64,000 nt of DNA from a virus. Its lineage: Duplodnaviria > Caudoviricetes. Below the pieces are notes generated by a model. The model was given only the letters and a program-made list of their open reading frames with translations, searched no databases and was not told where the DNA came from. The translations under genes were made by a program, and so were the position numbers. Where the stretch lies: IMG/VR virus record IMGVR_UViG_3300020331_000002. The stretch is one strand, 5' to 3'. Positions 54,333-59,929 of the stretch are shown here, in pieces. Position 1 is the first letter of the stretch; each line of letters begins with the position of its first letter.

Positions 54333-56006
54333 ATGACAATACGTGATGCTATAACAACGCATACGAGCAAGCCGGGCGATGCGTGGGCGAGATCTAATAT
54401 CTTACCTACGAAGCCTGGCTTCGTTCTTTTTATGCACGACTCAAAACCAGACCTCGAACACCTTGACTTCAGACATGCCAATGTAACACTGAAGGCAGGT
54501 CACCACCTTAAACCAGACAAACATGGCCACCGAGCTTTATCCGCCGCCTGCGGACAGTACGGCACAGCTTGTGATATAGACGTTGACTTCTACGCATTTG
54601 ACCGTAACAGTATTACTGAACTGATCGCGTCGTTTGAGATGTTAGTTCGTGATGCGGTGAGCGACCCAAGACGAGTTGCGGTTTCTGTTAACTGGCAAAT
54701 CACCGACGCAGTGTACGCAGAAAATGCAGATCGTTTAGACTACTGTTTTCGCACGCTTGCTGACGCCAATGTACCTGTATTTGTCGCAGCCGGTAACATG
54801 GGGACTGACCTTGTCATATACCCGTGTAACCACAAATCAGTAATAATCACAGGCTCTCATGACAAAGACGGTATGATAAGCCTGTTTAATAACACGCCTG
54901 AATTAATACGAGTGTTTGCGCTAGGCAAGGATGTTCGTGTCGCGTCCTTAGACAGCCGTACAGGGTACACAACTGATAGTGGTACTAGCTTTAGTAATTC
55001 AGCAGTGGCTGCGGCTATGGCTTACTACGATACCGTAGACGAGTTGTTGGCTGCATCGATACAAAATACGTTGAACTGGAAACGAGCTAGCCTTAACAAA
55101 CTAACATCCAGAGCATTGTTTTGTGGTGATCTTGATAGAACACGATCAGTCAATAACGTAACACATGGCAACACTGAACTCAAATACGAGGACGGCCTGC
55201 AGATTATCGTACACGACTTCAACACACGTAACTATTCAAGTGATAAGACGCATGTTGAATACTGTGTTGAACACATAAACGAAAAGCTTGCTGGCGAAAA
55301 CGTTTGGATACCTATGTCTGGCGGCCTTGATAGTGAGTATGTGATGCACTGTGCTCTGCAATCAGAAGCAAGAGTGCGCCCTGTAATTATGCGGTACATG
55401 TCTGATTTCGGTAAGCCGCTTAATGAATACGACTACAAGAACGCCATAGCCTACTGTGAAGCAAACAACTTAGAACCACGATTTATTGATGCAAAGATAC
55501 GTGAATTGTTTGATAACGGTGAGTACTGGTATTTTGTTAAGAAGTTTATTACCCGTAGCCCGCAACTCGCAGCGCACCTGTGGATGATCAATCAACTAGA
55601 TGCCAACTGTATATTACCGGGCGACCCACTAACGTTACACGGTTCTGGCAACATAGGCATACAACCGTATGACTATTACTGCTATGACAGGATGTTTCAT
55701 AGTAAGCATATGACGAGCAGTATAGCTAGGCTACACACTGCATCGGGCAACATAGTTAAAAAGAGTTTAGAAATTACGGCAAGCTTGGATCCTGCAATGG
55801 CGCCTGCAGAAAGAAAGCATGCGTTCTATTCTCGTTGTGGTATGCCTGATACCGCGCCACGGATTAAGTACACTGGCTTCGAAAAAGTGCGTGAGGAGTA
55901 CGACAAAAAGTACAGCGCAATAGATTATTTTAATCGCAAGTTTAGGATGCCAGCAAAGCACCTTCACACCTACGGGAGTAAGTTTTTCTATGACGGACTT
56001 GACTAA
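54333..56006 (+). CDS. fusion: N-terminal subtilisin-like S8 peptidase plus C-terminal PP-loop (adenine nucleotide alpha-hydrolase-like) domain
   Basis: HDS / HGH / VAAGN / SGTSFS triad elements; then PMSGGLDSE. Confidence 0.75.
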   Translation: MTIRDAITTHTSKPGDAWARSNILPTKPGFVLFMHDSKPDLEHLDFRHANVTLKAGHHLKPDKHGHRALSAACGQYGTACDIDVDFYAFDRNSITELIASFEMLVRDAVSDPRRVAVSVNWQITDAVYAENADRLDYCFRTLADANVPVFVAAGNMGTDLVIYPCNHKSVIITGSHDKDGMISLFNNTPELIRVFALGKDVRVASLDSRTGYTTDSGTSFSNSAVAAAMAYYDTVDELLAASIQNTLNWKRASLNKLTSRALFCGDLDRTRSVNNVTHGNTELKYEDGLQIIVHDFNTRNYSSDKTHVEYCVEHINEKLAGENVWIPMSGGLDSEYVMHCALQSEARVRPVIMRYMSDFGKPLNEYDYKNAIAYCEANNLEPRFIDAKIRELFDNGEYWYFVKKFITRSPQLAAHLWMINQLDANCILPGDPLTLHGSGNIGIQPYDYYCYDRMFHSKHMTSSIARLHTASGNIVKKSLEITASLDPAMAPAERKHAFYSRCGMPDTAPRIKYTGFEKVREEYDKKYSAIDYFNRKFRMPAKHLHTYGSKFFYDGLD

Positions 56007-56397
56007 AGAAAAGGTATACGAGTTACTAAGCGGAGAAAACGATTTCAGTATTTTTGCCAGTCAGGATTCTTGGTTATTAACACCCGCAGCGTTTCGTGCG
56101 TTGCGGGAGAAGATAACAGCATATAAGCTGGAGTCAGATCCTAGTATGATGCTGATTAATCGTGATGTGATACGCTTATCGCGCACAATGCGCGAGCCGT
56201 ATTATATCCAGTACCCTAATGACAAGCGTAGAACAGTGTCATATGGCAGACGCAACGGCAAATTAGCTAGGATATATTCTGGTGTTGATGATAATGAAAA
56301 GCAAAGCGCCGTGGTGTGGGTGTTCAACTTTAATATGGCAGCAACGGCAAAAGTAATGGGCGATTTCCGCCCATTACTTGATCAATTAGACTATTGA
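55990..56397 (+). CDS. hypothetical protein
   Basis: 135 aa; last + strand gene before the strand switch. Confidence 0.65.
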   Translation: MTDLTKEKVYELLSGENDFSIFASQDSWLLTPAAFRALREKITAYKLESDPSMMLINRDVIRLSRTMREPYYIQYPNDKRRTVSYGRRNGKLARIYSGVDDNEKQSAVVWVFNFNMAATAKVMGDFRPLLDQLDY

Positions 56398-57482: not shown

Positions 57483-57618
57483 TGTGCTATGATGCTCGTT
57501 CTCTAATCATAGTCACATAAGCAAACAATAATCTCCAGTCATTGCCTGACTCGCTGTGCTAGCAGACATGTACTATCGCAGATACTGAAGAGTCGCTTTA
57601 AGCGACTCTTCAAACATC
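57483..57618 (-). ncRNA. candidate structured RNA or cis-element (3 hairpins)
   Basis: 12-bp perfect IR 57586-57612 extended by G.U pairs on the minus strand; 5-bp hairpin 57537-57551; 11-bp hairpin 57483-57517. Confidence 0.4.
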
Positions 57619-57652: not shown

Positions 57653-58321
57653 CTAGGTGCCTGTCCCGGTGTTTATTCTCCATATGTAAAGTGAATAATT
57701 CCATATCGAGGCCTTAGAACCGGATAAACCGGCTTTCAGTTGTACATCGATTGTATGCGTGCCTTCAGCCAATGTTAGGATAGAAAAGTCATTGTAGCCG
57801 CGTTTGATTGGAGTTCCGGTAGACATGTAGTCGCCTGTAACAAGGTCGTCATTGGTGTCGGCGATTTCGTTTAAGTCTGTGGATGAATCTAACCGTACTT
57901 TCCAGCCGGCTACATTTTGCGAATCGCTACAATTGTAATTAAACCTATAGCCCACAAAGTAAGTACCGCCACCAACAGGCACACTAAATGTGTTTGACGG
58001 TCCTGTTGTCCACGCATCAGAGGTCACGGTAGTCAGTGTCGGTGCACTGAAATAATTAAAGCCTGTAAGCTCTTGAAACTCGAGTGAGGCGATGGCGGTA
58101 TTGACATATTCTTGTGTGGCGCTCGAGGCACTAGCAAGGTCTAACCAATCGGTGTTAAGCTCGTTCCTGAATTTTATTGCGCGTGTGGTTGAGTTAATCC
58201 AGACACTTCCAGCGATGACACTAGTAGGTTCTACAGGAGTGTGGTAAATTTTCGGGCTTTTAGATCCAATTTGTATTTCGGATTTAACAGTCCCAGTAAA
58301 AGCAAGGAATTTATCACTCAT
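57653..58321 (-). CDS. putative virion/fibre protein
   Basis: late promoter; GSVWINST; beta-sandwich-like C-terminus (AEGTHTIDVQ). Confidence 0.65.
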   Translation of the reverse strand: MSDKFLAFTGTVKSEIQIGSKSPKIYHTPVEPTSVIAGSVWINSTTRAIKFRNELNTDWLDLASASSATQEYVNTAIASLEFQELTGFNYFSAPTLTTVTSDAWTTGPSNTFSVPVGGGTYFVGYRFNYNCSDSQNVAGWKVRLDSSTDLNEIADTNDDLVTGDYMSTGTPIKRGYNDFSILTLAEGTHTIDVQLKAGLSGSKASIWNYSLYIWRINTGTGT

Positions 58322-58613: not shown

Positions 58614-59414
58614 TTAATCACTTAAGTACAGTTCGTTTTCTAGCTCTGCTCTGTATTCTGGATCTCTAATCGCCCGTGCGTATCTGTCTGGATCATACGA
58701 ACTGACTTTACCTGCCAAATAGTACTGATGGGCTTTTATGTTTGATAACTTGCGAGTAACCTGTCCTTCACTCATTATACCGGTATGGTGATAATGTGAT
58801 TTTTCCATATACCTTAGTACATGGTCAAGTATCATCGGTGTGTACAGTATGCGGTTTCGGGTTGCTGTGTGGATCAAATGTCCGAAACTAACTTCTCGTT
58901 TATGTGCATTTCCGAGTGGTCTTGAAACAGTCACATAGCGCTTTATATAAAAACTCTTGTGTAGACGATCGGTGTTGTTTTTTACTATGGTTTCATATGC
59001 ACATTGCATGAGGTTCGCAAAAAACTTGGCGCGATCGCCGGCCACGCCGTAATACGGGCCGTCAAGTCTTATCACCTTTTTCGACATGAACTGGAAAAAC
59101 TCATGCTCTTCTAGTAATAAGTACTCACCGACGTGACAGTAATATGGTATTCCTATTCCCATCTTCGCTATAGAAGCGAGAGCATTAGCTGTCTTTACCA
59201 TTTCTTTAGGACTAGGAATATAACCGTCACATACGGCGCTAAGGTCTAGGTCCGGTGTACACAATGAAGTGCCTAGCCGCATTGCTTGCCAATGTTGGTG
59301 ATTGCTACCCGACGAATAGTAGTCGAAACCAGTCAGTGATCCAGGCCTACATAACCGAGCTTTCGCTAGGTCTATGTCGATACCGACTTTCTCGAAAAGT
59401 TCACGATATGTCAT
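58614..59414 (-). CDS. hypothetical protein
   Basis: 266-aa ORF. Confidence 0.75.
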   Translation of the reverse strand: MTYRELFEKVGIDIDLAKARLCRPGSLTGFDYYSSGSNHQHWQAMRLGTSLCTPDLDLSAVCDGYIPSPKEMVKTANALASIAKMGIGIPYYCHVGEYLLLEEHEFFQFMSKKVIRLDGPYYGVAGDRAKFFANLMQCAYETIVKNNTDRLHKSFYIKRYVTVSRPLGNAHKREVSFGHLIHTATRNRILYTPMILDHVLRYMEKSHYHHTGIMSEGQVTRKLSNIKAHQYYLAGKVSSYDPDRYARAIRDPEYRAELENELYLSD

Positions 59415-59430
59415 GCATTACACTCTGTTA

Positions 59431-59483
59431 TGAATAGCTTGGCTAAAAACACTTAGCAAAATGCCTTTAGCCAAGAATCTTCA
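59431..59483 (-). promoter_or_regulatory. 17-bp hairpin enclosing the arfA stop codon (candidate RNase III or termination site)
   Basis: minus strand CTTGGCTAAAGGCATTT-TGCT-AAGTGTTTTTAGCCAAG, 17/17 with 3 G.U; outer TGAA/TTCA. Confidence 0.75.
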
Positions 59484-59611
59484 CGACCCTTGTGTTTGCG
59501 CTTTCTGTTATACTTGGTAGCGTCTTCTTCAACACGCTTCCTAAACATCGGAGTTCTTACCACTTGTTTAATGGCGCTTGGTTGGCTATGTTTAACTTTC
59601 TTCTTGCCCAT
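59453..59611 (-). CDS. arfA: alternative ribosome rescue factor ArfA-like, 52 aa (not in ORF track)
   Basis: SAIKQVVRTPMFRKRVE...YNRKRKH..R.DSW versus E. coli NAIEALLHDPLFRQRVE...YMRKGKH..R.NW; SD GGAGG. Confidence 0.75.
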   Translation of the reverse strand: MGKKKVKHSQPSAIKQVVRTPMFRKRVEEDATKYNRKRKHKGREDSWLKAFC

Positions 59612-59634
59612 AATTTCCTCCTGGCGTTAGAAGA

Positions 59635-59653
59635 GGGCATTGTATTAATGCCC
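59635..59653 (-). terminator. hairpin between the upstream gene and arfA (weak terminator or processing site)
   Basis: GGGCATT-N5-AATGCCC followed by CTTCT on the minus strand. Confidence 0.4.
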
Positions 59654-59929
59654 TTACATTAGAACTGGTATGATCATCAAAGTCAACATCAAAGCGTAGA
59701 AAATTATCCGTAGGTAGATATTAGTCTTGTGCTTGAATGCCTCGAACCTTTCCAGATACTCGGCCACTTTGCGTGCTGACGGCAGTGCTAGTAACACCGC
59801 AATAATACCCACAAAAGCTTCTAGATACACCGTTAGCACTACGGCAGCGATACAGAGTACCACAACAATAATGCCGTGGCCTATACAGTCTACGGTTTCT
59901 TCGTCTAAGTCGCTGAATAAATGATTCAT
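59654..59929 (-). CDS. membrane protein (3 TM)
   Basis: hydrophobic segments. Confidence 0.75.
   Translation of the reverse strand: MNHLFSDLDEETVDCIGHGIIVVVLCIAAVVLTVYLEAFVGIIAVLLALPSARKVAEYLERFEAFKHKTNIYLRIIFYALMLTLMIIPVLM

Follow-up and report, generated by a model that had tools for sequence, protein, structure and literature searches.

In bacteria, the arfA message is cut, or its transcription terminated, at a hairpin, which yields a non-stop mRNA whose product receives the tmRNA tag and is degraded as long as trans-translation is not saturated. Upon saturation, truncated active ArfA accumulates and recruits RF2 to non-stop ribosomes (PMC8012679). A short unannotated ORF in phage DNA (a stretch of 64,000 nucleotides from IMG/VR record IMGVR_UViG_3300020331_000002, hereafter the window) resembles ArfA and ends inside a strong hairpin. 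Is this ORF a gene, is its product an ArfA homologue, and is the hairpin a counterpart of the one that controls arfA in bacteria?

Results

A basic 52-residue ORF ends inside the strongest hairpin of the window

The ORF and its hairpin lie on the minus strand of the window, with the following elements.

59617..59622, minus strand: Shine-Dalgarno sequence AGGAGG, read from the sequence, 5 nt upstream of the ATG
59453..59611, minus strand: ArfA-like ORF of 52 amino acids, ATG start, stop codon included
59453..59455, minus strand: TAA stop, whose T is the last base of the loop and whose AA opens the 3' arm
59438..59475, minus strand: hairpin core with 17 uninterrupted bp (3 G.U) and the 4-nt loop UGCU
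59427..59487, minus strand: extended helix of about 24 pairs (the core, a 5-bp GUGAA/UUCAU helix and 2 outer pairs), with no U-tract after it

The first-pass annotation had proposed a 52-residue ORF with a strong Shine-Dalgarno sequence, and the ATG at 59611 with AGGAGG 5 nt upstream agrees with it. The product is strongly basic (17 K/R versus 5 D/E). For comparison, we used five near-identical relatives: a 306.5-kb IMG/VR genome (G001), a 307-kb metagenome contig and three Logan contigs. All five retain the Shine-Dalgarno sequence and the ORF, and the substitutions within the 51-codon core are synonymous third-position changes (3/3). The strong Shine-Dalgarno sequence together with this restriction to synonymous changes argues that the ORF is a real gene. 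A sigma-70 scan found no promoter directly upstream of it. The locus also occurs in contigs of marine metatranscriptome libraries, which shows presence only; in one sample, these contigs (X17 to X20) cover 59493-59848 and 59290-59441 and leave a gap at the hairpin, which is not evidence, as contigs cannot show RNA ends.

The stop codon had been placed in a 17-bp stem with 3 G.U pairs and an outer extension. RNA folding confirmed this and gave an outer helix of 5 bp, separated from the core by an internal loop. The 81-nt stretch that contains the hairpin folds at -30 kcal/mol (z = -5.3), and none of 200 shuffles was as stable; among stems of at least 11 bp on both strands of the whole window, this hairpin ranks first. 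A terminator scan did not pick it, the structure is not terminator-like as the U-tract is missing, and an Rfam search of the 57-62 kb region gave no match. The core begins in codon 46, one base ahead of the W47 codon. In E. coli arfA (L012), the known hairpin begins directly after the codon for W51, the residue aligned with W47. A product cut at codon 46-47 would thus retain the whole aligned core; for the channel segment of ArfA, at least about 47 residues must be retained (PMC8012679). The stop codon lies 15-17 nt ahead of the 3' end of the hairpin, so that transcripts of the window allele that end beyond the hairpin would retain it.

Two other hairpins of the window were noted. The second strongest (57585-57613, minus strand) is a 13-bp GC-rich stem located 40 nt downstream of a 222-aa gene (57653..58321). 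It also has no U-tract, so hairpins of this kind may mark transcript ends in this phage. The other (56351-56379) is a perfect 13-bp palindromic hairpin between convergent genes, inside the last 47 nt of the plus-strand ORF 55990..56397, and is probably a bidirectional terminator.

The protein aligns with ArfA along its core

E. coli ArfA (YhdL; PF03889; PDB 5H5U, 5MDV, 5U4I, 5MGP) is a small basic peptide, and the window protein shares its collinear core of a helix, P-x-F-R-x-R-V-E, Y-x-R-K-x-K-H and W. This likeness had been drawn by eye in the first-pass annotation, and HMMER reproduced it over residues 10-47 (FRKRVE against FRQRVE, then Y, RK, KH and W). Against the Pfam models, the single sequence remained under threshold: it scored 17.5 bits with PF03889 (E 0.0029; gathering cutoff 25.5) and 23.8 bits with PF23876, or DUF7230 (E 4.9e-5; cutoff 27 bits), the latter being its best single-sequence Pfam match. 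Against all sequences of solved structures, phmmer returned six ArfA sequences as sole matches, pairing residues 10-47 with ArfA 12-51; the ORF core SAIKQVVRTPMFRKRVEEDATKYNRKRKHKGREDSW is the part that aligns with these residues of the E. coli protein. An exhaustive phmmer search over 1.84 billion representatives (E <= 1e-3) gave 18 relatives, hence a family of 19 members with the window protein. The profile of this family (alignment A6) succeeded where the single sequence had not, as it matched E. coli ArfA in the PDB with an E value of 4.6e-9 and nothing else. Comparison of the family alignment with an enterobacterial ArfA alignment by hhalign gave a 96.5% probability (E 9e-10) over 42 collinear columns. 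The family-specific alignment was needed, for a mixed alignment rich in DUF7230 reached just 53%. When the 19 members were searched individually at E <= 0.01, 10 matched PF03889 (best 1.5e-12) and 17 matched DUF7230. Because the family's own profile matches only E. coli ArfA among solved structures, we conclude from sequence comparison that the window protein is a divergent ArfA homologue.

In the alignment, a short helix precedes the strand that pairs with RF2, and window P21-M-F-R-K-R-V-E28 faces E. coli P23-L-F-R-Q-R-V-E30. In the basic segment, Y34-N-R-K-R-K-H40 faces Y39-M-R-K-G-K-H45, and W47 faces W51. K39-H40 thereby falls on the KH motif, which in ArfA binds the mRNA entry channel (PMC8012679), and the C-terminal channel-binding part is the best conserved portion of the family. 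The window protein differs from E. coli ArfA in being phage borne and only about 30% identical, in having Q at the A18 position and in lacking the GKG insert of enterobacterial ArfA; it has DATK in place of KKGKGS, as the first reading of the sequence had noticed.

DUF7230 groups small phage proteins without an assigned function that have the D-K-T-K-Y-x-R-K motif in common with the window protein. The window protein keeps an ArfA-type VRTPMFRKRVE center, whereas AKYARxFNKAxV is typical of DUF7230. A protein of Pseudoalteromonas phage J2-1, annotated as ArfA, is 50% identical to the window protein over 38 residues and scores above both the ArfA and the DUF7230 thresholds. This protein bridges the two families and suggests that DUF7230 is a relative of ArfA.

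Other searches returned little. The window protein had no match in NCBIfam and matched only families of unknown function in PHROGs, a word-based protein search found a 64-aa relative as the sole match, and megablast of the locus against GenBank phages gave none. A tblastn search with E. coli ArfA against 50,697 phage records detected few homologues, in Arash, pf16 and Y3. The gene of Salmonella phage Arash (OQ632216.1; L077 317-541) is labeled "ribosomal protein L2" and its product shares 63% identity with E. coli ArfA (residues 4-41); judging by this match, it looks like a misnamed ArfA homologue whose start is probably overextended.

In E. coli ArfA, the A18T substitution abolishes RF2 activation (PMC8012679). 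The window protein has Q16 rather than a small residue at this position, so its ability to activate RF2 cannot be assumed. The small residue is functional in E. coli and is not a family-wide invariant: the equivalent column holds A in 4 members and K, R or Q in most others, bacterial-context members included. Since P0128 and P0129, both from a bacterial context, also carry K, the residue is not diagnostic and cannot decide activity. We considered, as the first-pass annotation had, that the protein might be a mimic that fills the empty mRNA channel without activating RF2 and competes with tmRNA-SmpB or host ArfA, with protection of phage products against tagging or a change in host translation as examples of its use. 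The conservation of the channel-binding part, the bulky residue at a position critical for RF2 activation in E. coli (PMC8012679) and the missing GKG insert would all suit such a mimic. However, the RF2-contacting FRKRVE is nearly identical to its E. coli counterpart, K at the A18 position is shared with members found beside a gene for a hibernation factor, and the arfA-type control hairpin described below suits a rescue factor better than an inhibitor. We regard the mimic as improbable. Prediction of a complex between the window protein (with the family alignment) and E. coli RF2 gave a score of 0.00, which speaks neither for nor against binding.

The DUF7230/ArfA-like module also occurs in longer forms in IMG/VR loci. 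It is fused to an N-terminal zinc-ribbon-like CxxC...CxxC segment in proteins of 64-67 aa (L017 502-702, L039 511-702, L054 and L055) and carries long C-terminal extensions in two others (L056 and L058).

Family members share a hairpin at the same position

The 3' parts of all family members with retrievable DNA were folded. All 8 independent loci (the lineage of the window and G001, and L065 to L071) have a hairpin of -15 to -27 kcal/mol that starts 15-35 nt (5-12 codons) past the K of KYxRK, and in each of them the ORF runs into or across it. For L069 and L070, the stop codon is within the 3' arm; for L066, L068 and L071 it lies just past the stem, and for L065 and L067 far downstream. The stems of L066 to L069 are GC-rich with U-tracts and are terminator-like; those of the window, L065, L070 and L071 are long AU-rich helices that resemble RNase III substrates. 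The stems are unrelated in sequence, and between the window and L065, where homology is visible, two pairs have changed on both sides, as in compensatory exchange.

As a control, 13 of the 93 nonoverlapping gene ends in the window reach -15 kcal/mol; the 8/8 of the family is far above this background, the comparison being approximate as the search range was 60 nt for controls and 90 nt for the family. The hairpin occupies the same position in all eight loci although the downstream genes differ, which links it to the arfA-like ORF and not to transcript architecture in general. That the phage might keep the tmRNA-sensing circuit of arfA in compact form, as first suggested, gains from this family-wide hairpin at the arfA position; the stop within the hairpin, from which compactness had been argued, is the norm neither of the family nor of the lineage.

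More distant phage relatives are divided. Hairpins that lie in the ORF or bury the stop were found in Acinetobacter phages Morttis and AB1I1M, in IMG/VR loci L013, L014 and L040 and in Pseudomonas phage pf16; in the DUF7230 members among them (L013, L014, L040 and Morttis), the structures are terminators inside the ORF, followed by hydrophobic tails. No such hairpin was found in J2-1, whose arfA has an ordinary overlapping stop, or in Acj133, which has a plain stop. Many DUF7230 genes likewise have plain stops and no hairpin, among them a large cluster of 44-45-aa genes on marine IMG/VR contigs (L016 to L053; MRKKKLKIRNPVARYARLFNKATVVPDKTKYNRKKDKK...). The arfA-type control element is thus carried by only part of the superfamily.

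These plain stops, and the presence of gene-end hairpins elsewhere in the window, are what one would expect if the protein were an active ArfA-type factor made constitutively from an ordinary stop-containing mRNA, with the hairpin serving RNA stability, processing or termination and no sensing of tmRNA. The position of the stop in the window allele is compatible with this, as termination or 3' trimming at the hairpin end would retain it. The constancy of the hairpin in front of different genes runs against it, and so does the comparison of alleles.

Close relatives read through the hairpin

Nearly all that distinguishes the five near-identical relatives from the window is the hairpin loop, which is TGCT in the window and TTATT in the relatives. 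This difference of one base in loop length shifts the frame, so that the ORF of the relatives continues across the 3' arm for another 12 codons, up to a TAA 1 nt before the ATG of the next gene. The product has 64 aa and a partly hydrophobic tail.

59418..59452, minus strand: tail LLSVFSQAI(H/Y)NRV, translated in the relatives and untranslated in the window

The layout of the relatives, as read from their sequences, is the classical one of arfA, with the hairpin inside the ORF and, behind it, a tail that is partly hydrophobic and poorly conserved. The stop within the hairpin is therefore peculiar to the window allele. A short product without the long hydrophobic C-terminal tail, and with its stop in the stem, had been described at first reading; this holds for the window allele and fails for the five 64-aa relatives. 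ArfA tails have been described as variable and often hydrophobic (PMC8012679), and the same is true of the C-terminal tails of the family. In four members (P0126, P0131, P0133 and P0134), the C terminus is LVA, RAA, VAA or LAA, which recalls the ALAA ending of the ssrA degron; to judge from these endings, the full-length forms may be built for proteolysis.

The allele difference bears on the constitutive factor set out above in two ways. The window allele lacks a destabilizing tail, as such a factor would, but all five close relatives read through the hairpin. Together with the conserved hairpin position, this leads us to rate constitutive production from an ordinary mRNA as unlikely, although it is the most serious competitor of arfA-type control.

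We also asked whether the 52-aa frame could be a chance ORF, or its stop an assembly error at the loop. The TGCT loop was seen only in the window's own lineage, with only TTATT relatives recovered when public contigs, from which the window's own records may be missing, were searched for it, and one of the differences is a change in the length of a T-run. Against this, the ORF, its Shine-Dalgarno sequence and its core are conserved in five relatives with synonymous changes only, the exhaustive search found 18 homologues, and the loops differ by two substitutions plus an indel, hence by no simple homopolymer error. Ten marine DNA runs from three studies contain all sampled words of the stretch; these runs may include the source of the window, and the words may miss the loop. 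We consider an unreal frame or stop very improbable.

The gene lies among accessory genes of a giant phage that would rely on host factors

The window comes from a marine giant phage that has not been cultured. The phage encodes a 579-aa protein that shares 44% identity with PA5oct-group proteins, and the record closest to it is the 306.5-kb genome G001, which has terminal repeats. The ArfA-like gene belongs to a series of small accessory genes on the minus strand, where its neighbors are a MazG-like gene, a gene for a DUF2975-like membrane protein and several genes without a family. Two features flank it.

58614..59414, minus strand: downstream gene of 266 aa, no Pfam family
59635..59653, minus strand: small GGGCAT/ATGCCC hairpin, directly behind the stop codon of the 91-aa membrane-like gene located upstream

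The nearest complete relative genome, G001, was found to encode no RNase III, no protein with an RF-1 domain and no true tmRNA, so the circuit would have to use host factors. Weak matches to tmRNA models at about 181-197 kb of G001 C1 are tRNA-like and below cutoff, and suggest a cluster of tRNA genes.

Among the species-representative bacterial genomes scanned, a relative was found in one Gammaproteobacteria MAG only. Locus L069 and the contig of P0129 have a bacterial context, with the arfA-like gene beside a gene for a Ribosomal_S30AE hibernation factor and not far from Tus and an integrase. These are probably ArfA genes on the chromosome of a marine bacterium, and this may be the donor lineage.

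Discussion

A proposed phage counterpart of the arfA circuit

The explanation that we find best, and hold to be probable though far from certain, is a phage-borne divergent ArfA homologue that acts in RF2-dependent alternative rescue under an arfA-type control hairpin. When ribosomes stall at the 3' ends of broken mRNAs, the K/R-rich C-terminal part with its KH motif would probe their empty mRNA entry channel, and the FRKRVE strand with the preceding helix would recruit host RF2, leading to peptide release. Ribosomes would thereby be freed during infection, when host mRNA decay or RNA-cutting defenses flood the cell with non-stop complexes. The hairpin at the end of the ORF would be the counterpart of the arfA hairpin, in that cutting or the end of transcription there would remove the stop codon. 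With about 22-24 bp and no U-tract, the cut would be of the RNase III type. The peptide made from the non-stop mRNA would receive a tmRNA tag and be destroyed, except when trans-translation is saturated. Cleavage by RNase III, control by tmRNA and recruitment of RF2 for rescue are steps that we infer by analogy with the bacterial circuit.

The two alleles would differ in how such a circuit behaves. In the 64-aa relatives, a cut and termination at the hairpin would both leave a non-stop mRNA, and the full-length product, which would be rare, would bear the partly hydrophobic tail. For the window allele, loss of the stop would require a cut in the 5' arm, and the uncut mRNA would give the tail-less 52-aa product. 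Since transcripts that end beyond the hairpin would retain the stop codon and their product is tail-less, control of the window allele may be looser than in the relatives. If anything, this allele looks like a variant whose uncleaved mRNA would yield a stable tail-less protein.

A cut at the hairpin would also separate the 266-aa gene from the arfA-like message. RefSeq annotates the 3' part of E. coli K-12 arfA (L012 3432-3485) as a small regulatory RNA derived from arfA (yrdG), so the piece set free when the hairpin is cut may itself be functional; its phage equivalent would lead into the 266-aa gene.

Relation to known systems

The gene resembles E. coli arfA in its layout as well as in its product. 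The E. coli gene has a hairpin of roughly 21-24 bp right after the aligned W codon, and its ORF, like that of the window's phage relatives, extends across the hairpin and ends in a partly hydrophobic tail of poor conservation; the window allele departs from both in having its stop inside the hairpin and no tail. BrfA of B. subtilis follows the same logic, with a terminator inside the ORF, a KH motif, recruitment of RF2 and a non-stop mRNA (PMC8012679). No sequence relationship between BrfA and the window protein was detected, and BrfA is an analogue only.

ArfA genes have been annotated in other phages that are likewise large or marine: J2-1, pelagiphage HTVC027P (gp30, reported to be highly expressed; PMC12753301) and Citromicrobium phage RXM (g10, annotated as ArfA; PMC8953757). 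These reports stay at the level of annotation and do not mention a control hairpin. Our literature search found no description of such a hairpin, and no functional test, for any phage ArfA.

What the locus means for phage arfA genes

The window gene is a new phage example of the known arfA design and not a new kind of system. What is new is the link between ArfA and DUF7230 and the natural pair of alleles, of 52 and 64 aa, that differ only in the hairpin loop; both advances are modest. By its suggested relationship to ArfA, DUF7230 gains a probable function.

A wider reading, which we offer tentatively and think less likely to be right than wrong, is that ArfA, the subfamily of the window and DUF7230 form one broad, mostly phage-borne superfamily of rescue peptides. 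Many large phages would then keep a self-limiting non-stop circuit by which they sense saturation of the host tmRNA system, and tail-less alleles with the stop in the hairpin would be natural deregulated versions of it. If so, saturation would be sensed as it arises from host mRNA decay or RNA-cutting defenses, and the circuit would be an experimentally unstudied countermeasure to immunity that targets translation.

Phage arfA genes have so far been recorded only as annotations. If the control hairpin travels with arfA into phages, and differs between near-identical strains, rescue capacity would be tied to the state of trans-translation in the host and not merely added to it. This offers a way to test how large phages maintain a supply of ribosomes during the destruction of host mRNA or under RNA-cutting defenses.
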